A DNA stretch of 64,000 nucleotides, from positions 33,002 to 97,001 of the forward strand of contig JAZRAA010000040.1 in assembly GCA_045634325.1 (NCBI GenBank), written 5' to 3'. This document shows, one piece after another, positions 9,767 to 43,453 of this stretch. The stretch's first letter is position 1, and each line of letters begins with the position of its first letter. The position numbers were made by a program, and so were the translations under genes. The notes beneath the pieces are model-generated. The model ran no database searches and was not told the origin of the DNA. It worked only from the letters and a program-made list of their open reading frames with translations. The stretch comes from Acutalibacteraceae bacterium (GTDB lineage Bacteria; Bacillota; Clostridia; Oscillospirales; Acutalibacteraceae).

Positions 9767-10675
9767 TTATTCCGCAAATAACGCATCCGCAAAAGTTTGC
9801 GGGTCGAAGGGTTGCAAATCGTCAATCCCCTCGCCGACACCGATAAATTTCACCGGCACTTTCAAATCACCATGCAAAGCCAGAACCACGCCGCCTTTGG
9901 CTGTGCCATCCAGTTTGGTGAGCACGATGCCGGTCAAACCTGCGACCTCTTTGAATTCTTTTGCTTGGTTGACTGCGTTTTGACCGGTGGTAGCATCCAG
10001 CACCAACAGCACTTCTTTGTCTGCATCCGGTAATTCTCTATCAATGATACGGCTGATTTTATGCAGTTCGTCCATCAGATGTTTTTTGTTATGCAAACGA
10101 CCCGCAGTATCACAAATCACCACGTCACACCCACGGGACTTTGCGGCGGCAATGGCATCAAACACCACTGCACCGGGGTCAGCACCTTGCGCATGACGAA
10201 CAATATCCGCATGTGCACGACCTGCCCACACTTCCAGCTGTTCAATCGCTGCATCACGAAACGTGTCAGCAGCCGCAAGCAACACTTTTTTGCCATCTTT
10301 TTGCAAATTGTGTGCCAGTTTGCCGATAGTGGTGGTTTTACCCACACCATTGACACCGATAACCAAAATCACCGACGGTTTGGTATGCAGTTGCAACGCC
10401 TGTTCACCACGCAACATATCCGCCACAATGTCCTGCAACAGCGCACGCACTTTGGTGGTGTCGGAAACCCGCTCTTCTTTCACGCGGGTTTCCAATTGTT
10501 CACGTAACAGGGCAGCAGTCACAATACCGACGTCGCCCATAATTAAGATTTCTTCCAATTCATCAAACAATTCACGGTCGATTTTCACGAATGCTTTGAG
10601 CACACTGCCCAGCGGTGCCATCATCGCATCACGTGTCTTTTTCAAACCGCCACTGAATTTCTCGAATAAACCCAT
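9767..10675 (-). CDS. ftsY: signal recognition particle receptor FtsY
   Basis: SRP GTPase motifs GVNGVGKTTTIGKLA, DTAGR and TKLDGTAKGG. 302 aa. Confidence 0.96.
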   Translation of the reverse strand: MGLFEKFSGGLKKTRDAMMAPLGSVLKAFVKIDRELFDELEEILIMGDVGIVTAALLREQLETRVKEERVSDTTKVRALLQDIVADMLRGEQALQLHTKPSVILVIGVNGVGKTTTIGKLAHNLQKDGKKVLLAAADTFRDAAIEQLEVWAGRAHADIVRHAQGADPGAVVFDAIAAAKSRGCDVVICDTAGRLHNKKHLMDELHKISRIIDRELPDADKEVLLVLDATTGQNAVNQAKEFKEVAGLTGIVLTKLDGTAKGGVVLALHGDLKVPVKFIGVGEGIDDLQPFDPQTFADALFAE

Positions 10676-10685
10676 GTTTTACTCC

Positions 10686-17289: not shown

Positions 17290-19358
17290 ACTTTCTCAAA
17301 TCCACAATTTTCAGTGCGGCAATACACACCGCCGTTTTTACCTTTGCGTTTGAACAGAGTTTTGCCGCATTTGGGACAGGTTTCTGCCGTCGGCTCATCC
17401 CACGTCATAAAATTACAAGTGGGATAGTTTTCACAACCAAAGAATTTGCGGTTGTGGCGGGATTTTTTCATGATGATTTTTCCACCGCAATCAGGACACA
17501 CACCTACGGTTTCTTCCACAATAGGTTTGGTGTTCTTGCAGTCAGGATAAGCGGGGCAAGCGAGGAATTTACCGAATCTGCCGGACTTGACAACCATTTT
17601 CCGTCCGCACAGTTCACACACCTCATCGCTTTCCACTTCAGGCACTTTGATGCGTTCACCCGACAAAGAGGTTTCTGCCTCTTGCAAAGTTTTGGAAAAG
17701 TCCACGTAAAATGCATCCAGCGTATTCACCCAATTTTTCTTGCCGTTTTCCACCGCATCCAACTGTTGTTCGATTTGCGCGGTGAATTCGGTATCGACAA
17801 TCTGCGGGAACTTATCCTTCATCAGAGAGGTCACCACTTCACCCAAAGCAGTGGGTTTGAGCGCCTTGTTTTCCCGCTCAATATATTCACGGGATAAAAT
17901 GGTGCTGACAGTCGGCGCATACGTAGACGGACGACCGATGCCGTTTTCTTCCATTTCCTTAATCAACGAAGCTTCGGTATACCGTGCGGGCGGTTGAGTG
18001 AAATGTTGGTTACCTTTCAGTTCACGGGTCACAAAAGTATCCCCTTCGCTGATAACGGCAAGCGGACGATTCTCGTCCTCTTTTTCATCCTTACCTTCCA
18101 CGTACAAAACAGTATAACCGTCAAATTCCACCGTGTAACCGGACGATTTAAAGATATACTGACCCGCCGCAATGTCTGCTTGGCAGGTTTTTTGCTGTTG
18201 GTCAGCCATCAAACTGGCAATAAAACGTTCCCAAATCAGCTTATAAAGTTTATATTGGTCACTCGACAGAGAGCCTTTCACCTGCTCAGGTGTCAAAGAC
18301 GGCATAGACGGACGAATCGCTTCGTGTGCATCCTGCGCATTGTTTTTGCTTTTGAACACACGCGCTTTTGCAGGCAAATACGCATCGCCGTAGGTTTCTT
18401 TGATATATGCCGTACCGCTGGCACGCGCTTCGTCGGAAATGCGCAAAGAGTCGGTACGCATATAGGTGATTAAACCCGTCGTGCCTTCGCCCTCAAGTTC
18501 CACACCTTCATACAACTCCTGTGCCGCTTTCATGGTGCGATTAGAAGAGAAACCAAGTTTGCGGTTGGCTTCCTGTTGCAAAGTAGAAGTGATAAAAGGA
18601 GGCGCGGGTGCAATTTTACGTTTACCGGTTTTTACCGAAATCGCTTTAAAGGTCTCCCCTTGCAATTCCGCCAAAATAGCGTTAGCTGTTTTCTCGTCTT
18701 TGATTTTCAGTTTACCTTTGGCGTTACCATGCAAACGAGCGGGGAAAGTTTTGCCCTTTTCGGTGCGAGACAAAGCCGCATCCACCGTCCAAAACTCCTC
18801 GCTGACAAAACTGCGAATCGCATTCTCACGGTCTACCACCAAACTGACGGTAGCGGATTGCACACGACCTGCCGAAAGGCCCTGGCGAATACTTTTCCAC
18901 AAAAAAGGACTGAGTTTGTAGCCAACAATACGGTCTAATATACGGCGTGCTTGCTGTGCATCCACTAAATCCAAATCCAATTTGCGCGGTTTCTGCATGC
19001 CTGCCGTCACACCGCTGCGGGTAATTTCATTGAACGTCACACGGTTTTTTTGCGCAGTATCCAATTCTAAAATCTGTGCCAGATGCCACGAAATCGCCTC
19101 ACCTTCACGGTCAGGGTCAGTTGCGAGGTACACGCACTCCGCATCCGCTGCTTTAGCACGCAATTGACGGATCAATGCAGTTTTGCCGGGGATGTCCATA
19201 TAACGCGGTTTGAACTGCCGTTGAATATCCACGCCGAGTAAACTTTTGGGCAGATCACGCACGTGACCCATTGAAGCGACCACTTCGTATCCTGCACCCA
19301 AATATTTCTGAATAGTTTTAGCCTTGGCAGGCGACTCCACGATGACCAGTTTCGACAT
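17286..19358 (-). CDS. topA: DNA topoisomerase I
   Basis: 690 aa with [18 protein letters not shown], active-site region YMRTDS and three C-terminal Cys4 zinc ribbons. Confidence 0.97.
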
Positions 19359-32507: not shown

Positions 32508-34073
32508 ATGAACGTATACGCTGTACCGACACAACTGCATACCGTTCACGACGCTGACCGTATCATTGCGGTCGGCGTATTTGACGGTGTGCACATCGGG
32601 CACAGTGCCGTGTTGACCAAAGCGTTGCTGGAACATGACCTCACTCCCGCTGTTTTCACATTCAAACAAAGTGACAACCTCAAATCAGGCGGCAGTTTGC
32701 AAACCGATGAAGCACGCCGTAAAATATTAGAACGGCTGGGATTTGCAGATATATTCGAAGCGGATTTTACCGCGATTCAGAATATGACACCGCAAGAATT
32801 TGTGGATATGTTGCACTGTAACCTGCACGCCAAAGCCATCGTGTGCGGTTTTAACTTCCGTTTCGGCAAAGGCGGGGCGGGAGATATTCGATTATTAGAG
32901 CAACTGTGCGCGCAAGCGAATATCAAGGTTATGGTGCAGCCCGCTGTCACCTTAGACGGTGAAGCGGTCAGCTCCACCCGCATCAAACAAGCGTTAAAAA
33001 ACGGAGATACTGCACTCGTACTGCGTTTGCAAGGCAGACCGTTCACGGTGGAAGCCACTGTCAAAAGCGGACAAAGGCTGGGGCGCACCCTTGGCTCCCC
33101 CACCATCAACCAACCCATTGAGGACAATATCGCCTTACCGCGTTTGGGCGTGTATGCTGCGGTTGCGACAGTGAACGGCCGTATGCTTCCTGCTGTTACC
33201 AATATCGGTATACGACCTACTGTCGGCGGAACAAAGCCGCTGGCGGAAACATATATTATAGATTTTGAAGGCGATCTTTACGGAGAAAAAATACCCGTCG
33301 AGCTGGTAAAATTTCTCCGTTCCGAACAGAAATTTGAAACGATTGTGGCACTGCAACAGGCCATCCAAAAAGATATCGCAGACACCCGTGCACTATTTGC
33401 CCCCACCAATACCACTCGTGCGGTGATTTTCGATTTCGACAACACCTTGGCAGACAGGCAAATCGCGTTTCACGCCTTTTTACAAGATTGGCTACGCAAA
33501 CATTTTCCGCAAATGCCGCAAACGGAATTGTTGGCATATTGTGACCGCCTTTTAGATGTCGGGCACTACGGCTTTGTACCTTTTTCCGCTGTCTTTGACG
33601 CGGCAAAAGAAATGTTGCCGTGGGAAAACCCGCCCACGCTCGAAGAAATGTTTGCATACTTAAAAATTGCATATCCTTTGCACACCACCGTGTTCGACGA
33701 TGCTGTGAAAACCATTACGCAGTTGCGCCGACGCGGCTATATCGTCGGTATTCTCACCAACGGTAACGTGCGTGTACAAACCGCAAAACTGGATATGTCC
33801 GGTTTGCGCCCGCTGGTTGACTATATGTTAATCGGCGGTGAAGAAGATATCCAAAAACCTGAGCCCGAACTTTTTTACCGTGTTGCCAAACGTTTGGGGG
33901 TACACCCTGCTGATTGTGTGTTTGTGGGTGATAACCCTAAAAACGATATTGAAGGGGCTTTAAATGCGGGTATGCGCGCCGTGTTCAAAGATTTCGGGTA
34001 TCCAACCGTCACAGTAGATGACCCTCAGGTGCCACACATATCCGCTTTGCAAGAATTACTCAATCTGCTTTAA
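32508..34073 (+). CDS. ribF: fusion protein: bifunctional riboflavin kinase/FAD synthetase RibF + C-terminal HAD-family hydrolase
   Basis: Residues 1 to about 300 carry FAD synthetase GVFDGVHIGH and the riboflavin kinase block GRTLGSPTINQ...PTVGG. Residues from about 305 to 521 carry HAD motifs IFDFDNTLAD, ILTNG, K(P) and VGDNPKNDIEGA. Confidence 0.88.
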   Translation: MNVYAVPTQLHTVHDADRIIAVGVFDGVHIGHSAVLTKALLEHDLTPAVFTFKQSDNLKSGGSLQTDEARRKILERLGFADIFEADFTAIQNMTPQEFVDMLHCNLHAKAIVCGFNFRFGKGGAGDIRLLEQLCAQANIKVMVQPAVTLDGEAVSSTRIKQALKNGDTALVLRLQGRPFTVEATVKSGQRLGRTLGSPTINQPIEDNIALPRLGVYAAVATVNGRMLPAVTNIGIRPTVGGTKPLAETYIIDFEGDLYGEKIPVELVKFLRSEQKFETIVALQQAIQKDIADTRALFAPTNTTRAVIFDFDNTLADRQIAFHAFLQDWLRKHFPQMPQTELLAYCDRLLDVGHYGFVPFSAVFDAAKEMLPWENPPTLEEMFAYLKIAYPLHTTVFDDAVKTITQLRRRGYIVGILTNGNVRVQTAKLDMSGLRPLVDYMLIGGEEDIQKPEPELFYRVAKRLGVHPADCVFVGDNPKNDIEGALNAGMRAVFKDFGYPTVTVDDPQVPHISALQELLNLL

Positions 34074-34140: not shown

Positions 34141-34782
34141 TTACATCAATATTCCCTGTAATTCCTCCGCACTCGACGCAAGGGCTTTTGCGCCGTGCAG
34201 TTCTTCCCTGGAGCCGTATCCATACAACACACCTACCGTCTCAATACCGCAAGCACGCGCACCGTCCACATCAAAACTGCGGTCGCCTACCATACACACT
34301 TGAGCGGGTGTTTGTATGTGTAATTGCTCCAACGCATAACGGATAACATCCGCTTTTTCCACCCGTGCACCACCCAGTTCACAGCCCGAAACAAAGGTGA
34401 AATATTGTTTTAAATCAAAGTGTTCTAATATGCGCTCGGCATACACGGCGGGTTTAGAAGTAGCAAGCACCAATTTGAAACCCGCTTGCTGTAAAGCGGA
34501 AAGCATTGTCGGTATACCCTCGTATACCGTGTTTTCAAACAACCCTTTATCGCCATAATACACACGATATAAGCGCAACATTTCATCTGCTTGCTCATCC
34601 GTAAGTTTAAATACAATCTTAAACTGCTCTTTAAGGGGCGGGCCGATGAACGAATACAGTTCTCGTCTATCCTCCACCACAATGCCGAAATGCTGCAAAG
34701 CATACATAATTGCATTCGTAATCCCCAAAGCAGGGTCAGTGAGCGTGCCGTCCAAATCAAAAAATATATACCGTTCCTGCAT
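34141..34782 (-). CDS. HAD-IA family hydrolase (phosphoglycolate phosphatase/PpaX-like)
   Basis: FFDLDGTLTD, LATSK and VGDRSFDVDGA motifs. The ATG directly abuts the upstream stop (TAAATG). Confidence 0.8.
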   Translation of the reverse strand: MQERYIFFDLDGTLTDPALGITNAIMYALQHFGIVVEDRRELYSFIGPPLKEQFKIVFKLTDEQADEMLRLYRVYYGDKGLFENTVYEGIPTMLSALQQAGFKLVLATSKPAVYAERILEHFDLKQYFTFVSGCELGGARVEKADVIRYALEQLHIQTPAQVCMVGDRSFDVDGARACGIETVGVLYGYGSREELHGAKALASSAEELQGILM

Positions 34783-35277
34783 TTAGCGCCCTCCCATTTG
34801 TTTTACGTGTGGTAACAGTATTTTGGTGACCACACCAATCACACAGCCGGTGACGGCACCGGCACATAACAGTGGCAAAACATAATACAACACACCGCCC
34901 ATACCCAACAACGCAAACGCCACAAGGAGCTGTCCGATATTGTGCAACACACCGCCCAACACGCTAACCCCAATCGGGCTAAAATGCTGATGACGGTAGC
35001 AGAGGCACATACCGATGAAACTCAGCACGGCACCCGCCAGACTATATAACATACCGGACACCGAGCCAAATATAAACGTCGCAAGCAACACACGCACCAA
35101 TGATACCGTTACGGCGAGCGGCGCGCCCATACTGTATAAGCACAATAGCACCACCAAATTTGCTAATCCCAACTTCATGCCGGGAATACCAAACGGCAAT
35201 GGTACCAACATTTCAATATAACTGAAAACAAACGCCAGTGCGACCAGCATGCCGCCCAAGGCAATACGTTTTGACAC
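34783..35277 (-). CDS. Gx transporter family membrane protein (Hpre_diP_synt_I-like)
   Basis: 164 aa with 5 predicted TM helices and a Gly-rich sequence, LGGMLVALAFVFSYIE...GMKLGLANL. GTG start with an AAGGAGGG SD 6 nt upstream. Confidence 0.6.
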   Translation of the reverse strand: MSKRIALGGMLVALAFVFSYIEMLVPLPFGIPGMKLGLANLVVLLCLYSMGAPLAVTVSLVRVLLATFIFGSVSGMLYSLAGAVLSFIGMCLCYRHQHFSPIGVSVLGGVLHNIGQLLVAFALLGMGGVLYYVLPLLCAGAVTGCVIGVVTKILLPHVKQMGGR

Positions 35278-35289
35278 TGTGCGCCCTCC

Positions 35290-35676
35290 TTACAAATCCA
35301 CGTCACTTTGCTGACCATTTTCAACGGTGATAACCAGTTGATGCGGCAGACATATGACACTCTGTCCACGGCGGCTGACTTTTCCTTGCCGCACACACAG
35401 TCCGTCAGGACAATCCGCATCGCTGACCCATACGGCACCATCACCTATATGCACCGTATTAAAACCACCATTTGCATCTTCTATATGCAGTTCTCGTTCT
35501 TCTAGGAGAGAAAACTCACCGTACACTTCACCGTATACCGTGATTTTAACCATTCCGTTATGTGCGGTAGGATATAAAAACAACTTGCCCAAAAGGAAAA
35601 CTACGCACAACGCCAATACGAGCGCCAGTACGATACAATCGCCTTTTTTCAGAAATCGTTTTCCTCTTTTGATCAT
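35290..35676 (-). CDS. NusG domain II (DUF1312)-containing membrane-anchored protein
   Basis: 128 aa with an N-terminal TM (IVLALVLALCVVFLLG), then VKITVYGEVYGEFSL...VWVSDADCPDGLCV...ICLPHQLVITV. ATG 35674-35676 with a GGAAG SD. Confidence 0.6.
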   Translation of the reverse strand: MIKRGKRFLKKGDCIVLALVLALCVVFLLGKLFLYPTAHNGMVKITVYGEVYGEFSLLEERELHIEDANGGFNTVHIGDGAVWVSDADCPDGLCVRQGKVSRRGQSVICLPHQLVITVENGQQSDVDL

Positions 35677-35711
35677 CCTACACACTTCCTAGTTATGTAT
35701 CAAATCCAGTA

Positions 35712-35743: not shown

Positions 35744-36301
35744 TTACTCAGCTTGTATATACTTTTCCTGCACAAAAGCGGCAACATCATTCACCGCTTT
35801 AACCACCGCCTGAGAGGTCACTGTTGCACCCGCAATGCCATCCACATGACTGCCGCGGCCCGCTTCGCCTGTCAGGTACATTGGCAACACACGGTCTTTG
35901 AAACGTTCTTTAAAAGAAGATTCCTTAATTCTGGCACCATAATATTCGCTTTCCTTTTGAGACAGCACCTCGATGCCACGCAATACCGTTGTATCCGAAG
36001 ATACCGTAATCGCCAATTTAATCGGCACTTCGCTGTTATATCCCGTGACAGCGGTTTGCACACGATAAGCTATCACATTTCCCTGTGCATCCGTACAGGA
36101 TTCAACGACCGAAATCGCCGCTTGTTCATCTGTGAAAATAGCGGTTTTAGACACAATCTCCGGCAACCCTTCCACAGGTTGTTCAAAAGAATTAAAAACC
36201 GCTTGCCGTGCCGCCGTGGCACACCATAACAACGCTGCGGTCAACACCGCCATGCACACAATCGATACGCCTATGCGCACCACTTTGTTTTTTCGTTTCA
36301 T
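35744..36301 (-). CDS. membrane-anchored FMN-binding domain protein (RnfG/NqrC paralogue)
   Basis: 185 aa with an N-terminal TM and an FMN_bind-like core. It carries the flavinylation motif VDGIAGATVTS. ATGA overlap with the apbE stop. Confidence 0.8.
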   Translation of the reverse strand: MKRKNKVVRIGVSIVCMAVLTAALLWCATAARQAVFNSFEQPVEGLPEIVSKTAIFTDEQAAISVVESCTDAQGNVIAYRVQTAVTGYNSEVPIKLAITVSSDTTVLRGIEVLSQKESEYYGARIKESSFKERFKDRVLPMYLTGEAGRGSHVDGIAGATVTSQAVVKAVNDVAAFVQEKYIQAE

Positions 36302-37359
36302 ACGGTATCTCCTTGATGTAAAAATGCAGTAAATCCATCGCTATATACCAAATCGCCGGTATGTTCCACCCAAACCGCCTCATATCCTTCGACGGTTTTG
36401 AGAAGCGCCGCCCCCTCTTGCTGCGGCATCAAAAACAAGGCGGTTGAAAGTATATCCGCCATCCCTGAATCCGGTCCTATCACCGAAACAGAGGCAAAAT
36501 ACTGTGCTGGTTGTAACGAATCAGGGTCAATCAGATGATGATAACGCACACCATCTACCTCAAAATACCGCTGATAATCGCCGCTGGTCACCACCGCACA
36601 ATTTTGTACATCCACTGTCAGCAGATGCTCTTGCGGATTTTTGGGGTTCTCGATGCCGATAATAAACGGCTTGCCCTGTTTGTCCCCCACGGCGACCACG
36701 TTACCACCCACACTGATTAAAGCGCTATGCACGCCAAGGTCCACAGCGTATTGGGCGACCCATTGCGCCGCCAATCCTTTTGCAAAGGCGCCCACATCCA
36801 ACGACATTGCGGTATCGGTCAATTGCACGGTGCCCGCCGCAGTATCCAGCACAACATTCGTTATGTCCGTGTGCTGATTAGCGGCTGACAGTGCCGCGTT
36901 CGACGGCGGGAGCGGTTTTTCTGCGTTACGTGCTTGATGCCACAAACACAAAACACTGCCCATCGCCATATTGACCTTGCCGTCGGTAAGGGTATATGCC
37001 TGCTTGCCGTATTGGAGCATACGCATCAAGTCTGTTGAAACCGTCACGGCTTCCCCCACGGCATCGTTGACCGCTTTTACATTCTGCAAACCTTGTATGG
37101 TATCGTAAATACTAAACTCATTGTGTAAAGCAGACAGTCGGGCGTGCAACTGTGCCGCCCAATCATCTGCCACCTGCTGTGACGTTGCATACAACTGTAA
37201 AACGGTCACCGTATCAAACACATCCAAATAGGTGTACTGGAACCGTTTTACAGTATCGGCACAACCGACAAAGGAAAAGAGCATCCCGCAGATGCATAAA
37301 AGCACAAGCAATCGTTTCAATGCCCTTTTCCTCCCCGTTTCAATCTTACACAGCAGCAT
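36298..37359 (-). CDS. apbE: FAD:protein FMN transferase ApbE (lipoprotein)
   Basis: Lipobox LFSFVGC, with ApbE blocks DVGAFAKGLAA, TSGDYQRYF and HHLIDP. 353 aa. Confidence 0.88.
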   Translation of the reverse strand: MLLCKIETGRKRALKRLLVLLCICGMLFSFVGCADTVKRFQYTYLDVFDTVTVLQLYATSQQVADDWAAQLHARLSALHNEFSIYDTIQGLQNVKAVNDAVGEAVTVSTDLMRMLQYGKQAYTLTDGKVNMAMGSVLCLWHQARNAEKPLPPSNAALSAANQHTDITNVVLDTAAGTVQLTDTAMSLDVGAFAKGLAAQWVAQYAVDLGVHSALISVGGNVVAVGDKQGKPFIIGIENPKNPQEHLLTVDVQNCAVVTSGDYQRYFEVDGVRYHHLIDPDSLQPAQYFASVSVIGPDSGMADILSTALFLMPQQEGAALLKTVEGYEAVWVEHTGDLVYSDGFTAFLHQGDTV

Positions 37360-38308
37360 TCATTGCTTTTTTCACGTTGATCAACATGGCGGGAACCATG
37401 ATGGTGCAGCCGGCAGCCGCATCGGTGATTTTAGAATCGGTAAGTTCCATACCGGCAATATCACCTTCAGTTTTGCCCGCCAAATATTTTTGCAGGTTAT
37501 CTACTTGCTCAAACCATTCCAAACCAATGCCGGAAGCAACTTTCATACCATAGTCATTTCCGAGCTGACGTTTGGTTTTCACTTCGCCGCTTTCTGCTGC
37601 AAATTTACCGTCGGTCACGGTGAATGCCTTTTGCAGTTCGTCAGCACGGCAGGCAGTTACTTTACCGTCTGCGCCAACAGCCACGCCGGTGAATTCAACG
37701 TCATAGCGAGGAGCGGTGTCTTCGCTGGAAGCATAACGAGAAGCGGTGACAGCCAGGCCCAATTTATCGGTAGCTTTTGCGCCGTCTTCTTTTGCATCGG
37801 CAGCAGCCTTGGATACCACTTTGATGAAATCGGTCACTACAATGGTGCAACCTGCGCTCAAGTCGGTGTCGACACCTTTGCCGTCTTGGGTTTGGATGCT
37901 CGAAACTTCGTTAGCTGTTTTGCCAACTACATATTTGCAGAATGCATCCACCTGCTCAAACCATTCTTGCTTTGCACCGCCATAGGTTTTCATGTTGTAA
38001 TCATTACCAAGTTCATATTTGGTTCTGAAATCCGCAACATCTTTCAAAACGTCGTTTTCTATAGCGGGTTTCAACTGCACTTCGTCCAAACGGCAGGAAA
38101 TGATTTTGCCGTCAGCATCGGTGAGTACCACTGCTGCGAGAGCGGTCAAGGAAGCTTCTTGCTCGCCTGCTTCGGCATTGGCGATGACCGCCATGCCCAT
38201 TTTGGTTTTTGCGTCATCATCATTTTGTTTGCCGCCGGCTTCCTTGGCGCAACCGACAAACGTCACCAACAAACATACTGCTAACAAACATGCCAATACT
38301 TTTTTCAT
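37346..38308 (-). CDS. internally duplicated lipoprotein with two FMN-binding-like modules (variant AGCT motif)
   Basis: Lipobox LLVTFVGC. There are two modules of about 140 aa, each with K-x-LGNDY-x-MK, EWFEQVD and GKT, and each ending D-x-x-AGCTI(V/M)V. This tail aligns residue-for-residue with the D-x-x-(S/A)GATV(T) flavinylation site of RnfG and of the neighbouring FMN-binding protein. AGAGGTG SD, 17 nt after the rnfB stop. Confidence 0.6.
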   Translation of the reverse strand: MKKVLACLLAVCLLVTFVGCAKEAGGKQNDDDAKTKMGMAVIANAEAGEQEASLTALAAVVLTDADGKIISCRLDEVQLKPAIENDVLKDVADFRTKYELGNDYNMKTYGGAKQEWFEQVDAFCKYVVGKTANEVSSIQTQDGKGVDTDLSAGCTIVVTDFIKVVSKAAADAKEDGAKATDKLGLAVTASRYASSEDTAPRYDVEFTGVAVGADGKVTACRADELQKAFTVTDGKFAAESGEVKTKRQLGNDYGMKVASGIGLEWFEQVDNLQKYLAGKTEGDIAGMELTDSKITDAAAGCTIMVPAMLINVKKAMNAAV

Positions 38309-38325: not shown

Positions 38326-39120
38326 TTAAAATATAATTTTTACAGGACATTTCTCGGCACAAGTGCCGCAATCGATACATTTTTCGTGCGAGATAACCGC
38401 CACGCCGTCATCCAGCGTAATGGCTTGGGTAGGACAGTTTTTCGCACAGATGCCGCAAGCGATACAACCGATATCGCACACAGCTTTGACATCTTTGCCT
38501 TTATCGTGGGACGAACACCGCACCGTGTAAGGACGTCCCGCCGGTTGTAAACTAATCAAGTTTTTCGGGCAAGCTTTCACACATTTGCCACACGCAATAC
38601 ATGCTTCTTCATCCACCACGGCGATGCCATCTACCATATGGATGCATTGTTGCGGACAAACTTTGGCGCAAGAGCCAAATCCGAGACAACCAAACGCACA
38701 TTGCTTTTGTCCACCACCGGGAGCCAACGCCGCCGCTTCACAGGTTTCAATACCGTCGTATACATATTTTGCGCCGGCACGCTCACAACTGCCCGCACAA
38801 TGTACCATTGCCGCCAAACGCGTCGCTTCCTCAGCTTGTTTGCCCATGATTTCCCCAATTGCTTTGGCGCCTGCGGCACCGGCAACGGGGCATAGATGAA
38901 CGGGTGCATTATCCTCGGCTATCGCCTTAGCATACGCATCACAACCGACATAGCCGCAACCGCCACAGTTAGAACCGGACAATATATTGCGTACCGCCGT
39001 TTGTTTTTCATTTTCGGCTACCGCTAATAGTTTACCCGCGACACCGAGAATGATACCAAGCAGCAGACCGACACCTGCGACAACGCCTGCTGCAATCAAA
39101 ATCCCCAAATAATTTTCCAT
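38326..39120 (-). CDS. rnfB: Rnf complex subunit B (ferredoxin-binding, polyferredoxin)
   Basis: N-terminal TM, a CGGCGYVGC cluster and several CxxCxxCxxxCP motifs. 264 aa. Confidence 0.92.
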   Translation of the reverse strand: MENYLGILIAAGVVAGVGLLLGIILGVAGKLLAVAENEKQTAVRNILSGSNCGGCGYVGCDAYAKAIAEDNAPVHLCPVAGAAGAKAIGEIMGKQAEEATRLAAMVHCAGSCERAGAKYVYDGIETCEAAALAPGGGQKQCAFGCLGFGSCAKVCPQQCIHMVDGIAVVDEEACIACGKCVKACPKNLISLQPAGRPYTVRCSSHDKGKDVKAVCDIGCIACGICAKNCPTQAITLDDGVAVISHEKCIDCGTCAEKCPVKIIF

Positions 39121-39132
39121 TGTCTTCCTCCT

Positions 39133-39711
39133 TTACAACAAGGACTTAAAGCCGAAAAATGCCAACGACATCAATCCCGCCGTCATCAACACAATCGGTG
39201 TCCCTTTAAAGGATTCCGGTATATCGTTATCTGCGATTTTTTCACGCACACCCGCCATGATGACAATAGCAACGGTAAAACCAACCGCCGTACCGAAACC
39301 GCTCACCACGCTGGTGATAAACGAATATTCATTCTGCACATTATTGAGTGCCGCACCCAACACCGCACAGTTAGTGGTGATGAGCGGCAAATATACGCCC
39401 AGGGCACGATATAACCCTACGCTGTATTTTTTGAGCACCATTTCTACCAACTGCACCAGAGCGGCGATGACTAAAATAAACACAATCGTTTGCAGATAGC
39501 CAAGACCGAGCGGTTGCAAAATACCGGTATAAATTAACGACGTAAGTGCAGAAGAAACCGTGATAACACAGATAACCGCCAATCCCATACCGGAAGCGGT
39601 TTTCACCTGACCGGAAACGCCGACGAACGGGCACAAACCTAAAAACTGGCTAAGTACCACGTTATTAATCAGCGCAGTGGTGAGCAAAACAAGAAACAAA
39701 TTATCACTCAT
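39133..39711 (-). CDS. rnfA: Rnf complex subunit A
   Basis: 192 aa polytopic protein starting LINNVVLSQFLGLCPF. Start trimmed to ATG 39709-39711 (ATGA overlap with the rnfE stop). Confidence 0.92.
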   Translation of the reverse strand: MSDNLFLVLLTTALINNVVLSQFLGLCPFVGVSGQVKTASGMGLAVICVITVSSALTSLIYTGILQPLGLGYLQTIVFILVIAALVQLVEMVLKKYSVGLYRALGVYLPLITTNCAVLGAALNNVQNEYSFITSVVSGFGTAVGFTVAIVIMAGVREKIADNDIPESFKGTPIVLMTAGLMSLAFFGFKSLL

Positions 39712-40382
39712 TGTGCATCCCCCTCTCCGCTTTCGCACGCCGTACAACCACCGCAATGGCCGTTACAGGTCTTTGCGCCTTTACGGTTAGTGGCAGAGGG
39801 CGCTTTGAGTTTGTTCTGCAAAGCCGTGAGAATTGCCAACACAAAGAACGCACCCGGCGCCAACACCAAAATCGGAATGGTATACGTTTCGGGAAGCACG
39901 CGCAACCCAAACACCGTACCCGCACCCAGCAATTCACGCACAGCGCCCAAAATGGTGAGTGCTACCGTAAAGCCCAGACCCATACCGATACCGTCAAACA
40001 AAGCAGGCATGGGTTTGTTTTTAGAAGCATACGATTCCGCGCGGCCGAGAATAATACAGTTGACCACAATGAGCGGAATATAAATGCCCAACGTCTCATA
40101 CAGGCCGGTCACAAATGCCTGCATCAGCAATTGTACCATGGTAACAAACGAAGCTACCACCACAATGTAAGCGGGCATTCGCACCTTATCAGGAATGACA
40201 TTGCGCAAAATGGAAATCAGTAAATTGGAAAGCATCAACACAACCGTGGTGGAAAGACCCATACCGAGTCCGTTAAAAGCGGCGGTGGTGACCGCCAAGG
40301 TAGGACACATACCCAACATCAACATAAAGGTGGGGTTTTCTTTGATAATGCCGTTATATAACCGTTCTAAACACGTTTTCAT
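39708..40382 (-). CDS. rnfE: Rnf complex subunit E (with Cys-rich C-terminal tail)
   Basis: NPTFMLMLGMCPTLAVT and PLIVVNCIILGRAE motifs. Start trimmed to ATG 40380-40382 (ATGA overlap with the rnfG stop). The tail sequence is CNGHCGGCTAC. Confidence 0.9.
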   Translation of the reverse strand: MKTCLERLYNGIIKENPTFMLMLGMCPTLAVTTAAFNGLGMGLSTTVVLMLSNLLISILRNVIPDKVRMPAYIVVVASFVTMVQLLMQAFVTGLYETLGIYIPLIVVNCIILGRAESYASKNKPMPALFDGIGMGLGFTVALTILGAVRELLGAGTVFGLRVLPETYTIPILVLAPGAFFVLAILTALQNKLKAPSATNRKGAKTCNGHCGGCTACESGEGDAQ

Positions 40383-40996
40383 GCATCCAACCCCCCCCCG
40401 ACCATATATTCCGAAACGAACCAAACGCCCGCATTCACCGCATTGGTCACCCCTTGAGAAGTGACGGTAGCACCACTGATGCTGTCGATTTGTGTTTCAT
40501 TCGCACCGCCCTTGACCACCGAAAGGGTGGTAGCGGATTTGCCGGCAAATTGTCCATAAAACGACTCGTCGGTACATTTAGAACCCAGTCCCGCAGTTTC
40601 GGTGTGGGACAAAATGGAAATACCGGTGAGCTTACCGTCTGTTCCAATACCCAACGTCAAATCAATAGGACCGCCGTAGCCGTTACCGCTGACGGTTAAT
40701 ACATACCCGATTTTCTCGCCGTTTGCATCGGTAGCATACAAGGCATCCGCCACCTTGCAGCCTGCAAAACCGGCTTTTGCCAACGCTTCATCTGCGGTTG
40801 TTAACGCCTTGTTGACGGTCTCATCTTCCGCGAAAGATGCCGCTTGTGAGAAAATACCGCGATACGCCTTTGCACGTGCTTCAAGAGCCGCTCTCGCAAT
40901 TGGCTCTTTAGTCACCGCATATACCGCCGCCAACAAGACACCTGCTACCAACGTAATCATAAACAAGGCAAATGCATCTTTTGCTATTTTCTTCAT
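40379..40996 (-). CDS. rnfG: Rnf complex subunit G (FMN-binding)
   Basis: N-terminal TM, SHTETAGLGSK and the flavinylation site DSISGATVTS. 205 aa. Confidence 0.92.
   Translation of the reverse strand: MKKIAKDAFALFMITLVAGVLLAAVYAVTKEPIARAALEARAKAYRGIFSQAASFAEDETVNKALTTADEALAKAGFAGCKVADALYATDANGEKIGYVLTVSGNGYGGPIDLTLGIGTDGKLTGISILSHTETAGLGSKCTDESFYGQFAGKSATTLSVVKGGANETQIDSISGATVTSQGVTNAVNAGVWFVSEYMVGGGLDA
40391..40399 (-). repeat. G9 homopolymer (C9 on plus strand) in the last codons of rnfG, 9 nt upstream of the rnfE ATG
   Basis: Plus strand reads ccccccccc at 40391-40399, coding the GGG of ...YMVGGGLDA*. Confidence 0.95.
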
Positions 40997-41946
40997 GCTT
41001 TTGCCTCCTTTTTCACGCCGAAAGCGCGCGGTAGTGTCACCTTTTCAATGAGCGGCACCAAAATGTTGCCCAGCACGATTGCATAGGAGACACCCTCAGC
41101 CGCCGAACCGACTAATCGGAACAACGCGGTCAGCACGCCAATCAAAATGGCATACAACCATTGACCGCCACGCGTGATGGGGCTGGTAGAATAATCGGTT
41201 GCCATAAAGAACGCACCGAGCATCAAACCGCCGCTGCACAATTGCGCCGCCAAATACGATAACGTGGGCAAGCCACTGCCGTTCAGCAAGGAAATCAACG
41301 TGACAGATACCGCAAAACTTCCCAAATATACCAACGGAATACGCGGACTAATCACATGACGCACCAACATATACGCCGCACCAAGCAAGATTGCCACGGT
41401 GGACACCTCGCCGATACAACCCGCACGTGTGCCAAACACCAGTGACAGCATATCCACCGTTTCACCCGCCTTCATAGCAGCAAGCGGGGTGGCTCCTGTG
41501 ACACCGTCCAAGCCCGCAGGATAGGTGGTCATATAGCCACCAAAAGAAATCAGCATGAAACAACGTGCGGCTAATGCGGGGTTAATAAAGTTTTGTCCGA
41601 TGCCACCAAACAGTTGCTTGACAGCAATAATTGCAAACACACTGCCCAAGACAGCAATCCAAATCGGAATACCGACAGGCAAATTATACGCCAGCAACAA
41701 GCCGGTAACCAGCGCACTGCAATCCCCGATAGTCACCGGGAGTTTTAACAGTTTTTCATATACAAACTCCGAAAGCATGCAAGTGAGCACGCAAACGCCA
41801 ATTACCAGCAACGCGCGCCAGCCAAAATTCCACACACCGAACACACCTGCCGGCAACAGTGCAATGGCGACGTCCGCCATGATTTCACCTGTGTTGGTGT
41901 GCGCATGGATATGCGGCGAAAAAGAAATGCGTTTTAAAGTATTCAT
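40993..41946 (-). CDS. rnfD: Rnf complex subunit D
   Basis: 317 aa polytopic protein with the flavinylation site GVTGATPLAA. Confidence 0.92.
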   Translation of the reverse strand: MNTLKRISFSPHIHAHTNTGEIMADVAIALLPAGVFGVWNFGWRALLVIGVCVLTCMLSEFVYEKLLKLPVTIGDCSALVTGLLLAYNLPVGIPIWIAVLGSVFAIIAVKQLFGGIGQNFINPALAARCFMLISFGGYMTTYPAGLDGVTGATPLAAMKAGETVDMLSLVFGTRAGCIGEVSTVAILLGAAYMLVRHVISPRIPLVYLGSFAVSVTLISLLNGSGLPTLSYLAAQLCSGGLMLGAFFMATDYSTSPITRGGQWLYAILIGVLTALFRLVGSAAEGVSYAIVLGNILVPLIEKVTLPRAFGVKKEAKA

Positions 41947-43283
41947 TTTTTTGCCGCCTCCCTTGTTTGTTTATTAGCAGTGGAAATCGCCGTCTTGGCT
42001 TGCACAAAACTTTGCGTCAAATAAATGTGTGCGGGGCACACATACGAACAACTACCGCAGGAAACACATTCCATGCCGTTCAAATTCTTGAATGCATCCA
42101 TATCGCCTTTTCGCACGGCTTTCACCATTAACTGCGGCACCAAATTTGCGGGACACACACGCACACAGCGTCCACAGTGGATACAATTGGTGGTTTTCAA
42201 ATCCGCCGTTTGATTGTTTGTAAATGCCAGCAGTGCAGAAGTAGTTTTCTGCACCGGCACATCAGCGCTCATCAGCGCCGTACCCATCATCGGACCACCC
42301 GCAATGAGTTGTTGCGGTTCCGTCGCAAAACCACCCGCAAGCTCTACAACCTCTTGCAAAGAAATGCCAATGGGCACTTCATAGTTGCCGGGATTGCAAT
42401 AGGCGTTGCCCGACAAGGTAACGATGCGGGTGAGCAACGGCGTGTTTTCTACTACGGCACGATACAGTGCAATCACCGTTGCCACGTTGTGCACAATGCA
42501 GCCTGCCTCGTAAGGCAACATACGGGAATGTACTTTCTTGCCGGTCAACGCATAAATCAGTGAGCGCTCACCGCCTTGCGGATATTTGGTTTTCAGTGCG
42601 CCCACAGAAATTCCCGCATGTTCATCTGCTTTATGAGAAAGCAGACGAATCGCCTCCGGTTTATTATCTTCAATGCCAATAATTGCTTTGGCATTCGGGA
42701 ACATTTGAAGCAAAATACGAATACCGCCAAACAAAGCATCACTTTGTTCCAGCATCAAACGGTAATCCGATGTGAGATACGGCTCGCATTCCGCACCGTT
42801 GATGATGATATGCGTAATGGCGTTATCCTCACGAGGAGTAAGTTTTACATCAGCAGGGAAACCTGCGCCGCCCAAGCCGACAATGCCCGCCGCACGCGCA
42901 ATCTCGCGGATTTGACCGTTATCCAAATCATGAAAATCATCGTGCGGCGTTCCCCACTCACAAGCGGTATACTGCCCGTCATTATCCACCACGATGGACA
43001 GCACACGATTACCCGAAACAGTCAGCCGTTTTTCTATCGCTTTGACGGTACCCGACACGGCTGCACAAATACCCGCAGATAAGCCGTCGGCAGGCATGGC
43101 GATCTGCTGTCCGACCAGCACCATATCACCTTTTTTTACCGTCGGCACCGCAGGCTTACCGATATGCTGCGACAACGGATATACCGCTTCTCCGACAGGG
43201 CGCAACTGCTGTATCGGCAACGAGGCTGTCAACGCCTTACCATCGTACATATGCACGCCACCGCGAAATGTGTTTTTCAACAT
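41943..43283 (-). CDS. rnfC: Rnf complex subunit C (NADH-binding, 2x[4Fe-4S])
   Basis: GLGGAGFP and two CxxCxxCxxxCP motifs (CIHCGRCVRVCP, CVSCGSCSYVCP). Start trimmed to ATG 43281-43283 with an AAGGAGAG SD. Confidence 0.92.
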   Translation of the reverse strand: MLKNTFRGGVHMYDGKALTASLPIQQLRPVGEAVYPLSQHIGKPAVPTVKKGDMVLVGQQIAMPADGLSAGICAAVSGTVKAIEKRLTVSGNRVLSIVVDNDGQYTACEWGTPHDDFHDLDNGQIREIARAAGIVGLGGAGFPADVKLTPREDNAITHIIINGAECEPYLTSDYRLMLEQSDALFGGIRILLQMFPNAKAIIGIEDNKPEAIRLLSHKADEHAGISVGALKTKYPQGGERSLIYALTGKKVHSRMLPYEAGCIVHNVATVIALYRAVVENTPLLTRIVTLSGNAYCNPGNYEVPIGISLQEVVELAGGFATEPQQLIAGGPMMGTALMSADVPVQKTTSALLAFTNNQTADLKTTNCIHCGRCVRVCPANLVPQLMVKAVRKGDMDAFKNLNGMECVSCGSCSYVCPAHIYLTQSFVQAKTAISTANKQTREAAKK

Positions 43284-43373
43284 AAACCAACTCTCCTTCT
43301 TTCTGCTAAATATTTTTTGCAAAAAGATAACAATTATCAAAATGAACATAGCATTCGTAAATTATACATCACT

Positions 43374-43402
43374 ATTATACCATATATATATACTTTTTGC
43401 AA
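43374..43402 (-). promoter_or_regulatory. sigma-A promoter for rnfCDGEAB (TTGCAA-N17-TGgTATAAT)
   Basis: Minus strand has TTGCAA (43397-43402), a 17-nt spacer and an extended -10 with TATAAT (43374-43379). Confidence 0.6.
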
Positions 43403-43410
43403 TGTATTTT

Positions 43411-43453
43411 AAAAGACAAAAACACCACACGGCAAAAATTTGCCGTGTGGTGT
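43411..43453 (-). terminator. rho-independent terminator after fba
   Basis: 15-bp perfect stem ACACCACACGGCAAA/TTTGCCGTGTGGTGT (43422-43453) followed on the minus strand by TTTTGTCTTTT. Confidence 0.85.

Follow-up and report, generated by a model that had tools for sequence, protein, structure and literature searches.

The window, which is the whole 64,000-nucleotide stretch of DNA analysed here, carries on its minus strand a set of rnf genes followed by the genes of a two-module lipoprotein, an ApbE, an RnfG-like FMN_bind1 protein and two proteins resembling EetA and EetB. As shown in Table 1, the rnf genes lie immediately upstream of the lipoprotein gene. The rnfB stop and the start of the lipoprotein gene are separated by 17 nt, which is consistent with one operon, and relatives with 36-80% identity have these genes in the same order. 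The operon probably starts at the promoter-like site upstream of rnfC, as judged from its consensus match, and a strong terminator is located just before this site. The apbE gene overlaps the 3' end of the lipoprotein gene by 14 nt, and its product is also a lipoprotein (lipobox FVGC). RnfG has a single domain in the window, whereas it has two domains (~395 aa) in many relatives. Outside the clade nearest to the window, the gene of the FMN_bind1 neighbour is absent; its product is a candidate for passing electrons from RnfG on to the lipoprotein. The pairing of eetA and eetB has been described, with eetB corresponding to PF07456 and having a role in FAD export (PMC9973259); by analogy with that role, the EetB-like protein may be the FAD exporter subunit that supplies the extracytosolic ApbE.

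The N-terminus of the lipoprotein (MKKVLACLLAVCLLVTFVGC, followed by AKE) is a lipoprotein signal with Cys20 as the lipidated residue, which is kept in at least 90% of the homologues (n = 65), and from this signal the protein is predicted to be extracytosolic. Residues 22-28 have low pLDDT values, which suggests a flexible tether. The two halves align with 41% identity over 109 residues (E 2e-25, internal alignment), and the strings DGK(I/V)..CR.DE(V/L)Q, K..LGNDY.MK, EWFEQVD and GKT are common to both modules in the translation, in agreement with the first-pass annotation, which had quoted these strings and described two homologous modules in a 320-aa lipoprotein with the lipobox FVGC.

The same annotation had pointed out D..G.T tails in which Cys takes the place of Ala, and these tails are present: both motifs were read from the DNA, and the sequences of RnfG and the neighbouring FMN_bind protein were confirmed. 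As in the canonical motif D-x-x-[S/T]-G-A-[S/T], both motifs have Asp six positions before the Thr (T-6) and Gly at T-2. The T-1 residue is Cys in both modules, and in motif 1 this is Cys154, which stands where the canonical motif has Ala; the T-3 residue is Ala in both, the canonical Ser/Thr being absent. Thr155 is the predicted FMN phosphoester acceptor of module 1, and Thr302, which is invariant among 65 homologues, is the predicted second FMN acceptor in module 2.

Table 1. Features of the rnf operon and of the lipoprotein gene in the window.
Feature	Position	Strand	Basis or remark
Terminator	43422-43453		strong
Promoter-like site TTGCAA-17-TATAAT with TG	43374..43402	-	upstream of rnfC; consensus match only
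rnfC-D-G-E-A-B	38326..43349	-	ORFs; Pfam for RnfB and RnfG
RnfG	40379-40996	-	Pfam FMN_bind; carries IDSISGATVTSQGV
Lipoprotein gene, 320 aa, two modules	37346..38308	-	translation of the window
Signal peptide, residues 1-19	38252..38308	-	translation; lipobox F-V-G-C
Cys20 codon	38249-38251	-	directly after the signal peptide codons
Module 1, residues 33-176, FMN-bind2-like	37781..38212	-	internal repeat, AF2 model, module-profile matches
Motif 1 DLSAGCT, D149-T155	37844-37864	-	read from DNA
Module 2, residues 179-320, FMN-bind2-like	37349..37774	-	internal repeat, whole-protein model
Motif 2 DAAAGCT, D296-T302	37403-37423	-	read from DNA
apbE (FAD:protein FMN transferase)	36298..37359	-	Pfam ApbE 8e-67
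Membrane-anchored FMN_bind1 protein, RnfG-like, motif AGAT	35744..36301	-	Pfam FMN_bind 7e-13; NCBIfam rnfG-like matches; carries VDGIAGATVTSQAV
EetA-like membrane protein, NusG_II domain	35290..35685	-	Pfam NusG_II 3e-28
EetB-like ECF-S-type subunit (PF07456)	34783..35277	-	Pfam Hpre_diP_synt_I 8e-38; weak ECF_trnsprt match

Relationship to the FMN_bind family

In direct scans, the lipoprotein had no Pfam or NCBIfam match, and against the Pfam FMN_bind profile (PF04205, gathering threshold 22 bits) it gave no match even at E ≤ 1. Its matches to SPASM, LytA and SP0191 were far under threshold and were rejected. On their own sequences, 9 of 65 family members matched PF04205. A homologue that is 44% identical to the lipoprotein and has DLSAGCT in both modules (P0031) scored 32.7 bits, where its module 1 covers profile positions 4-76 of 77 and spends 114 residues on 73 profile positions; three further members (P0026, P0028 and P0029) reached 17.7-19.6 bits over the full profile. 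The matches of family members to SPRY, MmlI, DUF6763 and TonB_C were regarded as noise, being inconsistent in position or sub-threshold.

The module profile matched only two PDB sequences, 2KZX (2.9e-9) and 8P2B (0.026). The former, which is listed as a member of PF04205 (PMC4348036) and scores 25.6 bits on that profile, matches the lipoprotein itself at E 1e-6 and has SGAT at the aligned motif site. In the module-profile alignment, the family Thr is aligned with Thr67 of 8P2B, which is the FMN-linked residue (PMC10339131). The hhalign comparison gave P values of 0.002 against RnfG and 0.03 against the FMN_bind1 protein, with five control families at 0.17-0.59, and with the module HMM (207 modules) the RnfG and FMN_bind1 proteins of the window reached no more than 0-5 bits, which is too weak alone. 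Since P0031 and 2KZX are above the threshold and the lipoprotein itself is without a Pfam match, its FMN_bind membership is by transitive homology, and on sequence grounds the protein is assigned as a divergent FMN_bind-type protein. The profile search against FMN_bind suggested in the first-pass annotation thus found the similarity by way of P0031, 2KZX and 8P2B, the direct scan being negative.

The model of the whole protein has a pLDDT of 93 and a pTM of 0.87, which indicates a fixed mutual arrangement of the two modules. In the AF2 model of module 1 alone (pLDDT 95), three long β-strands come first, and after them a helical insertion, the loop with the acceptor and a helix at the C-terminus. 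The module strands are 11-13 residues long in the AF2 models, the Thr lies 4 residues ahead of the last helix, and β3 is separated from the EWFEQ helix by an addition of about 40 residues, which includes further short helices. As modelled, this order of elements, β-β-β then helices with the Thr before the last helix, matches the FMN_bind scaffold (PMC10339131), and the modelled insertions match those described for FMN-bind2 (PMC11334425).

A Foldseek search of the PDB gave no significant neighbour for the whole model or for module 1, and its best 50 matches included none of 2KZX, 3O6U, 8P2A/B, NqrC and RnfG. Known FMN_bind members likewise score poorly against one another. The earlier annotation had raised a comparison of the fold with NqrC and RnfG; the order of elements in the AF2 models agrees with the FMN_bind scaffold, and no FMN_bind structure is retrieved by Foldseek. 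The matches to MHC-like, CaMKII-hub and ISCU structures have low TM scores and were discounted as signs of homology.

Acceptor motif and loci across the family

The family comprises about 2,000 sequence clusters, mostly from gut and rumen Clostridia, with Acutalibacteraceae, Oscillospiraceae and the Eubacterium coprostanoligenes group as the main hosts, and all named members are annotated as hypothetical proteins. Eubacterium coprostanoligenes ATCC 51222 (L014) is a culturable carrier of the gene. An exact-sequence context look-up of the lipoprotein itself gave no match. Among 150 representatives, 135 have two modules, 10 have four, 2 have six and 3 have an odd number.

The column statistics refer to 333 modules of the family. 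The acceptor position is Thr in 311 modules, Ser in 21 and a gap in 1, so that Thr or Ser is retained in 332 of 333. The counts at T-1 are 187 Cys, 109 Val and 25 Ala; those at T-2 are 159 Gly, 126 Ser and 22 Thr; those at T-3 are 227 Ala, 81 Ser and 21 Thr; and 243 modules have Asp or Glu at T-6. The motif does not arise by chance, since in practically all homologues both modules have it at one and the same column of the alignment. The G-C-T triplet, whose conservation the first-pass annotation had proposed to survey, is retained at the Thr/Ser; its Cys and Gly are not invariant, as the T-1 and T-2 counts show. Canonical SGAT/AGAT modules also exist within the family, sometimes alongside SSVT in one protein, and one sub-clade is without the Thr of module 1, having xGCD or xGCN instead.

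Verified ApbE substrates nearly always have Ala at T-1, and so do RnfG and RnfD at the loci of the family. The T-3 position, on the other hand, is a loose one, since AGAT is also found in the RnfG and RnfD of the same loci. A Ser or Thr at T+2, which hydrogen-bonds the flavin N3 in 8P2A/8P2B (PMC10339131), is not conserved in the family. In the literature, an Ala-to-Val mutant of a verified ApbE substrate retained about 50% flavinylation in vitro (PMC12052999), and no natural Cys or Val site at T-1 was found reported as a verified ApbE substrate. If the family members are ApbE substrates, the working acceptor motif widens to D-[LI]-x-[AST]-[GST]-[CVA]-[TS].

In 69 of the 79 loci that could be evaluated, the family gene is directly followed by one for ApbE. 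No ApbE lies within 5 kb downstream in 8 of the 79; seven of these have none in the flank covered, and one (L040) has an upstream copy at 7.8 kb. Together with the near-invariant Thr/Ser, this adjacency makes it very probable that the neighbouring ApbE acts on the protein, as the first-pass annotation had predicted. Among 85 species loci, the family gene is found with Rnf in 62, with Ndh2, a polyprenyl synthase and UbiA in 9 and in other contexts in 14, and EetA/EetB are present in 58. In the nine Ndh2-type loci, the polyprenyl synthase is DmkB-like, UbiA is DmkA-like, and the family gene occupies the PplA slot, with no other FMN_bind gene within 8 kb. A natural fusion joins a canonical FMN_bind1 domain to two family modules (L084), and its gene adjoins those of ApbE and of a DsbD_TM-thioredoxin protein. 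The Pfam bridges through homologues and 2KZX, the profile matches to 2KZX and 8P2B, and the loci with the PplA slot bear out the earlier reading of a divergent tandem FMN_bind lipoprotein in a PplA-like position.

Proposed electron relay and alternatives

We consider it likely that the lipoprotein is a two-module covalent-flavin carrier acting as a surface electron relay from Rnf. This proposal builds on the gene anatomy, the duplication, the homology to FMN_bind, the conservation of the acceptor Thr and the linkage to ApbE, EetA/EetB and electron-input modules; we infer flavinylation itself, the direction in which the electrons move and the partners involved, and what the Cys does. In the proposed mechanism, the protein would be exported and lipidated at Cys20, and its two FMN-bind2-type domains would pack into a rigid pseudo-symmetric unit. 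The EetB-type ECF exporter of the same operon would provide extracytosolic FAD, from which ApbE, itself a lipoprotein and the product of the overlapping gene downstream, would transfer FMN onto Thr155 and Thr302 through phosphoester bonds. The resulting two-flavin unit would relay electrons outside the cytosol in the manner of PplA; it would be fed by the outward-facing flavin of Rnf (RnfG), possibly via the FMN_bind1 protein two genes downstream, and would hand electrons to acceptors outside the membrane. Such a relay suggests that the Rnf of many abundant gut anaerobes has a built-in, quinone-free outward electron branch, and as probable ApbE substrates the family members would form a large overlooked set of extracytosolic flavoproteins, invisible to Pfam-based flavinylation surveys.

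A rather unlikely alternative is that the protein is a non-flavinylated descendant of FMN_bind, namely a flavin-handling or ligand-binding lipoprotein that is not an ApbE substrate, for example an extracytosolic FAD/FMN-binding chaperone that would accept the FAD exported through EetB and deliver it to ApbE, which would use it to mature RnfG and RnfD. The canonical Ala, which RnfG and RnfD retain at these loci, is lost in more than 90% of the modules, the flavin contact at T+2 is lost, and the Thr itself is gone from some modules. The gene is linked to the FAD-export genes eetA/eetB as much as to electron-input genes, and clusters of Rnf, eetB and apbE have already been explained without this protein (PMC9973259). 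However, the retention of Thr/Ser (332/333) and of Asp/Glu at T-6 (243/333) is hard to explain without a phosphoester function. The presence of canonical SGAT modules inside the family, the fusion to a canonical FMN_bind1 domain, the tolerance of ApbE to the Ala-to-Val change in vitro (PMC12052999) and the position of the protein as the sole candidate ApbE substrate nearby in the Ndh2/Dmk loci also argue for the flavin carrier.

As for the Cys, the first-pass annotation had suggested that it could add thiol or redox chemistry, but the occurrence of Cys, Val and Ala at T-1 (187, 109 and 25 of 333 modules) fits a small hydrophobic packing residue. Because these three residues interchange, a steric role is favoured over thiol chemistry, and the Cys is most likely a family-typical replacement of Ala, by Cys or Val, that fills a slightly larger packing pocket and takes no part in chemistry. 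Every module of every Rnf-linked copy examined has Cys at T-1, including the Thr-less xGCD/xGCN modules. In the tree, Val at T-1 forms one nested clade, so that the pairing of Cys with Rnf and of Val with Ndh2 amounts to approximately one evolutionary transition; this association is therefore not independent evidence, and its reading as functional tuning was rejected. A disulfide between the motif Cys and a β3 Cys (C72/C220) was also rejected because the two positions do not covary, as seen in members that combine IDVKIDE with AGCT or ACKIDA with ASVT.

It is quite unlikely that the Cys is functional as a thiol beside FMN in the Rnf-coupled members, forming a flavin-thiol couple or a transient flavin-cysteinyl adduct, although this would explain the Cys in every Rnf-linked module, even the Thr-less ones. 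If it were so, the potential might be tuned for the low-potential electrons of Rnf, or the protein might reduce disulfides, persulfides or metals at the surface, and this would be new chemistry for ApbE-type flavoproteins.

A further reading, for which we see little probability, makes the conserved Cys the functional centre, either as a thiol or metal site (an IscU-like Fe-S or metal site) or as a flavin-thiol couple, with the Thr secondary. In IscU, the last helix begins at a ligand Cys, and ISCU scaffold proteins head the Foldseek list for module 1, with probabilities of 0.90-0.98 over about 145 aligned columns. The conservation of Cys in all Rnf-linked modules examined, xGCD/xGCN included, and the adjacency of some family members to a DsbD-thioredoxin protein or a copper ATPase point the same way. 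However, the ISCU matches are non-significant (E 0.017-0.05, TM 0.32-0.44, rmsd ~6 Å), and the module profile has no match among the ISCU chains of the PDB, even with a cut-off as loose as E ≤ 10. No second conserved Cys/His ligand is present, C72/C220 being Val in many members, and whole functional-looking clades are among the modules with Val (109) or Ala (25) at T-1; the Cys-with-Rnf pattern is a single clade split. An IscU/NifU-like scaffold, which would have three Cys ligands, is not supported: each module has one conserved Cys, which is replaceable by Val or Ala, and there is no significant similarity in profile or structure.

Finally, it is highly improbable that the lipoprotein is a dedicated peripheral Rnf subunit that stabilises the complex or extends its internal flavin chain without outward electron transfer, replacing the second FMN_bind domain of the relatives' RnfG, despite the spacing of 17 nt between rnfB and its gene in an operon without interruption, the Rnf placement in 62 of 85 species loci and the single-domain RnfG of the window, because the lipoprotein is kept even in relatives with a double-domain RnfG, the family also occurs at Rnf-less Ndh2/quinone and DsbD loci, the four- to six-module versions resemble extended relays, and solved Rnf complexes (7ZC6) are not known to contain such a subunit.

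Comparison with known systems

Judged from its sequence and its AF2 models, the lipoprotein resembles the canonical FMN_bind domains (NqrC, RnfG, 3O6U, 8P2A/8P2B and 2KZX) in having three antiparallel strands followed by helices, with the acceptor Thr shortly ahead of the final helix; it also shares the Asp at T-6, and its T-2 residue is small. It differs from them in its sub-threshold Pfam score, in the Cys for the conserved Ala, in the absence of the T+2 Ser/Thr contact, in having ~40 more residues as additional helices, and in showing no significant Foldseek similarity.

By its described features, which are module size, copy number, insertions and invisibility to InterPro, the family matches the FMN-bind2 subtype (Huang, Meheust, Barquera and Light, mSystems 2024; PMC11334425), whose exemplars are NTW96865.1 and WP_312031774.1. 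Because of this match, the subfamily is not an undescribed one, as the first-pass annotation had considered it might be; the FMN-bind2 subtype has been published and is still missing from Pfam/InterPro. The described FMN-bind2 module has ~160 aa and that of the lipoprotein ~144-147 aa, both being larger than FMN_bind1. The FMN-bind2 insertions lie at β1/β2 and β3/α1, and the additions in the lipoprotein are between strands and from β3 to the first core helix. Both have even copy numbers (2, 4 and 6), Firmicutes hosts, no InterPro/Pfam assignment and a confident, fixed two-module unit. In FMN-bind2 the two modules are described as packing sheet to sheet into a pseudo-symmetric unit; for the lipoprotein, the pTM of 0.87 implies a fixed mutual arrangement. 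The text of the FMN-bind2 paper makes no mention of Cys or Val for Ala, of the placement in Rnf operons or of the PplA slot at Ndh2 loci. The two exemplars were not among the sequences returned by the cluster look-ups and homologue searches of the family, and our literature search found no experiment on any FMN-bind2 protein.

Compared by gene position and description, PplA of Listeria monocytogenes, which belongs to flavin-based extracellular electron transfer, is also a lipoprotein with two flavinylation sites (predicted in the present protein) and is encoded beside an ApbE homologue (FmnB in Listeria) with eetA/eetB. The flavinylated residues of PplA are Thr143 and Thr265, a spacing of 122 aa, which suggests a smaller domain type than that of the lipoprotein, where the spacing is 147 aa. 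The PplA gene set of FmnB/ApbE, EetA/EetB, Ndh2 and DmkA/DmkB is complete in the nine related loci, whereas the upstream partner of the lipoprotein is Rnf in place of Ndh2/demethylmenaquinone. Clostridial iron reduction is the subject of a 2026 paper, in which the protein treated is NosR-ApbE, a different one.

The multi-flavinylated RnfG and other proteins described by Meheust et al. (eLife 2021) embody the same concept, an Rnf with extra extracytosolic flavins and an outward electron path. In those systems, however, the extra domains are fused to RnfG and are of the Pfam-detectable FMN_bind1 type, whereas in the window they are carried by a separate lipoprotein of the FMN-bind2 type, which Pfam-based surveys would miss.

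The two-module lipoprotein and its operon

The lipoprotein encoded between rnfB and apbE comprises 320 aa in translation and carries a lipoprotein signal at its N-terminus (MKKVLACLLAVCLLVTFVGC), and the Cys20 position is kept in at least 90% of 65 homologues. The remainder consists of two modules, which align with each other at 41% identity (E = 2e-25) and are each closed by D-x-x-A-G-C-T followed by a helix. This organization had been described in the first-pass annotation and was confirmed; all the strings quoted there, including the RnfG and FMN_bind-neighbour tails used for comparison, were found in the translation.

As listed in the table, the gene follows rnfC-D-G-E-A-B, starting 17 nt past rnfB. 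The start of rnfC is bracketed by a promoter-like site and an upstream terminator, and no strong terminator was found within the operon gene run in the window sequence. PF07456 corresponds to EetB, an ECF-S-like subunit exporting FAD for extracytosolic ApbE, whose usual partner is EetA (Rivera-Lugo et al. 2023, PMC9973259); the same study reports 2,169 genomes in which eetB is colocalised with apbE, and 572 Clostridia genomes in which it is colocalised with Rnf (PMC9973259).

Features of the lipoprotein gene and its surroundings
Feature	Position (nt)	Strand	Basis or remark
rnfC-D-G-E-A-B	38326-43349	minus	ORFs
rnfC, as mechanically called	41943-43349	minus	ORF
rnfE, as mechanically called	39708-40424	minus	ORF
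Lipoprotein gene	37346-38308	minus	translation
Module 1, as modelled	37781-38212	minus	AlphaFold2
Motif 1, DLSAGCT (Thr155)	37844-37864	minus	DNA read
Motif 2, DAAAGCT (Thr302)	37403-37423	minus	DNA read
apbE	36298-37359	minus	Pfam ApbE 8e-67; 14-nt overlap with the lipoprotein gene
Membrane-anchored canonical FMN_bind protein, next after apbE	35744-36301	minus	FMN_bind 7e-13
NusG_II protein	35290-35685	minus	Pfam
PF07456 protein	34783-35277	minus	Pfam
HAD_2 hydrolase	34141-34782	minus	begins right at the eetB stop codon
RibF with HAD domain	32508-34073	plus	convergent on the operon end

The RibF protein (521 aa; FAD synthetase and riboflavin kinase) has a HAD hydrolase domain fused at its C-terminus (residues 304-492), and the HAD_2 hydrolase is encoded separately. 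That two HAD phosphatase-type domains adjoin the FAD-synthesis and FAD-export genes may indicate that flavin nucleotide turnover is tied to the flavinylation operon. The called starts of rnfC and rnfE seem to have been placed too far upstream; the likely start of RnfC is the internal MLKNTFRGGVH, and that of RnfE is near MKTCLERLYNG rather than at the TTG overlapping rnfG.

Relationship to the FMN_bind domain

The lipoprotein has no match in Pfam or NCBIfam, and an HMM of 207 modules gave only 0-5 bits against the window's RnfG and FMN_bind proteins, yet with the motif in register. The homology to FMN_bind (PF04205) rests on bridges via other sequences. PF04205 is matched individually by 9 of 65 family members (best E = 1.2e-7). 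The member P0031, which is 44% identical to the lipoprotein and has DLSAGCT in both modules, reaches 32.7 bits (threshold 22), and its module 1 extends over positions 4-76 of the 77-position profile. PDB entry 2KZX comes from Clostridium thermocellum and is counted among the PF04205 members by Borshchevskiy et al. 2015 (PMC4348036). It scores 25.6 bits on PF04205 and matches the lipoprotein at 1e-6 and the module profile at 2.9e-9, with TDAISGATIKV aligned with TDLSAGCTIVV of the lipoprotein. The sole other module-profile match in the whole PDB is 8P2B (domain 1 of CbFMN4, E = 0.026), and the family acceptor Thr aligns with its Thr67, which carries FMN in the crystal structure (PMC10339131). 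Similarity was also detected in a local profile-profile comparison, with P values of 0.002 for RnfG and 0.03 for the FMN_bind neighbour over 106 columns; five families of the same loci, taken as controls, gave 0.17-0.59. These matches support the earlier reading of the lipoprotein as a divergent tandem FMN_bind protein.

The AlphaFold2 models are confident (whole protein, pLDDT 93 and pTM 0.87; module 1 alone, pLDDT 95) and show three long antiparallel strands, several helices and then the acceptor-Thr loop, four residues ahead of the last helix, with extra elements inserted past strand 3 in each module. The best Foldseek matches of module 1 in the PDB were chains of the human Fe-S scaffold ISCU (5wkp_D, 8pk8_D, 6uxe_D), spanning about 145 columns at a probability of 0.90-0.98, although with E of 0.017-0.05 and TM of 0.32-0.44. 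No profile similarity between ISCU and the module profile was found in the PDB, and the resemblance may reflect shared general topology and nothing more.

The acceptor motif and its preceding cysteine

An exhaustive profile search (E <= 1e-3) gave 1,997 family representatives (50% clusters); the named members are all annotated 'hypothetical protein'. Of the best 150 of these representatives, 135 are two-module proteins, 10 four-module and 2 six-module proteins. In the 333 modules of these 150, the acceptor is Thr in 311 and Ser in 21, with one gap, so that the acceptor of the G-C-T triplet noted in the first-pass annotation held in 332. The Cys did not: the preceding position (T-1) is Cys in 187, Val in 109, Ala in 25, Thr in 7 and Ile in 3. 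The other columns contain mainly Gly 159, Ser 126 and Thr 22 (T-2), Ala 227, Ser 81 and Thr 21 (T-3), and Asp 211 and Glu 32 (T-6). Canonical SGAT, AGAT and TGAT modules also exist in the family, some sharing a protein with an SSVT module. From these sequences, D-[LI]-x-[AST]-[GST]-[CVA]-[TS] may serve as the working motif.

Giant members with at least six modules were also observed (P0138, 991 aa; P0139, 983 aa; P0430, 1324 aa). One giant member, from a Sphaerochaetaceae (spirochaete) genome, has a Ser acceptor and EELFASCS in all six modules; the range of the family therefore exceeds Clostridia.

According to the ApbE review (PMC12052999), flavinylation of a verified substrate is lost on Thr-to-Ala exchange, little affected by Asp-to-Ala, and reduced to about 50% by either Gly-to-Ala or Ala-to-Val; ApbE can therefore tolerate a larger side chain at T-1. 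RnfG and RnfD in the same loci keep Ala (xGAT in 66/68 and 34/34 matched motifs), which indicates that the Cys is a trait of the lipoprotein family and not of the genomes.

The cysteine had been suggested to add special thiol chemistry. However, Cys, Val and Ala interchange at T-1, and neither a second conserved ligand residue nor covariation of the motif Cys with the other frequent Cys was found in the family alignment, which points to packing by a small hydrophobic residue; a chemical role of the Cys is considered quite improbable. In the loci examined, both modules of all Rnf-linked copies have Cys at T-1, and all Ndh2-linked copies have Val save one (Met in one module, Cys in the other). 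In the distance tree, the Val/Ndh2 group forms one clade nested among Cys/Rnf clades, which amounts to roughly one transition; the association was therefore dropped as independent evidence for functional tuning.

In one sub-clade (L055, L039, L036, L053, L043, L022, the first copy of L040, L048, L037), module 1 ends in x-G-C-D/N, where three residues of the D-x-x stretch are deleted and the acceptor Thr is lost while Gly-Cys is kept; module 2 ends in D-A-I-[ST]-G-C-T, canonical but for the Cys. These proteins seem to be single-flavin variants of the two-module unit. At L040, two copies flank one Rnf operon (10001-10906 and 17709-18700): the degenerate one is situated upstream of rnfC, and the other, with AGCT in both modules, adjoins ApbE.

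Genomic setting and comparison with known systems

In a sample of 80 species-level genome loci and 6 metagenome loci, ApbE lies directly downstream of the family gene in 69 of 79 evaluable loci (median gap 123 nt). The surroundings of 85 loci are Rnf in 62, Ndh2-polyprenyl synthase-UbiA in 9, and other or unseen in 14; EetA/EetB genes occur at 58. Hosts belong to Acutalibacteraceae, Oscillospiraceae, Ruminococcaceae and 'Eubacterium', with E. coprostanoligenes ATCC 51222 among them; the closest relative of the lipoprotein (80% identity) is from an Acutalibacteraceae genome. At L084 (9530-13474), a single 460-aa protein combines a membrane anchor, a canonical FMN_bind1 domain (53 bits) and two family modules, and is followed by ApbE and a DsbD_TM-Redoxin/thioredoxin-like fusion protein. 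This arrangement, also found at L074, indicates thiol-based transmembrane electron input as a third partner type.

Several other arrangements were observed. At L045 (6076-10628) and L038, a lipoprotein-ApbE pair (motifs AGCT, AVCT) precedes a heavy-metal P-type ATPase with two HMA domains, and no Rnf or Ndh2 genes were found within reach of the locus. RnfG is of double length in many relatives (L001-L003, L012, L013 and other loci), with about 395 aa and two FMN_bind matches. In the window, RnfG has a single domain (205 aa) and is accompanied by a separate anchored FMN_bind1 protein; L008 and L009 have two FMN_bind1 matches downstream of ApbE.

The acceptor conservation and the ApbE pairing uphold the lipoprotein as a probable ApbE substrate, as first proposed. 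It would be exported and lipidated, an EetB-type exporter would provide FAD, and the adjacent ApbE would move FMN onto Thr155 and Thr302. The lipoprotein could then take electrons from the outward-facing flavin of RnfG, possibly via the anchored FMN_bind1 protein, and hand them to extracellular acceptors. Extra flavin sites on RnfG were proposed to open a second, outward path (Meheust et al. 2021, PMC8238504); here, the putative sites are on a separate lipoprotein, which would extend that idea and be missed by Pfam-based surveys.

The family had been thought a possible undescribed subfamily, but its features match FMN-bind2, the less common type of about 160 aa distinguished from compact FMN-bind1 (Huang, Meheust, Barquera and Light, mSystems 2024, PMC11334425; preprint PMC10979944). 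FMN-bind2 has insertions at beta1/beta2 and beta3/alpha1 and usually occurs in two or four copies, whose packed sheets form a pseudo-symmetric unit that contains two flavinylation sites (PMC11334425); its published exemplars lack an InterPro identifier. By this description, the likeness lies in size, insertions, even copy number, a two-module unit modelled as fixed, and database invisibility. In the literature consulted, no FMN-bind2 protein was found to have been tested biochemically. New here are the motif relaxation documented across a very large unannotated family, its near-obligate pairing with ApbE, and its embedding in Rnf operons of common gut Clostridia.

In the Ndh2-type loci, the place of PplA is taken by the family member, and within 8 kb no further FMN_bind gene was found. 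In Listeria PplA, the flavinylated residues are Thr143 and Thr265, a spacing of 122 aa compared to 147 aa in the lipoprotein, which suggests that PplA uses the smaller domain type. The relation to PplA is claimed as analogy and shared locus position, rather than orthology.
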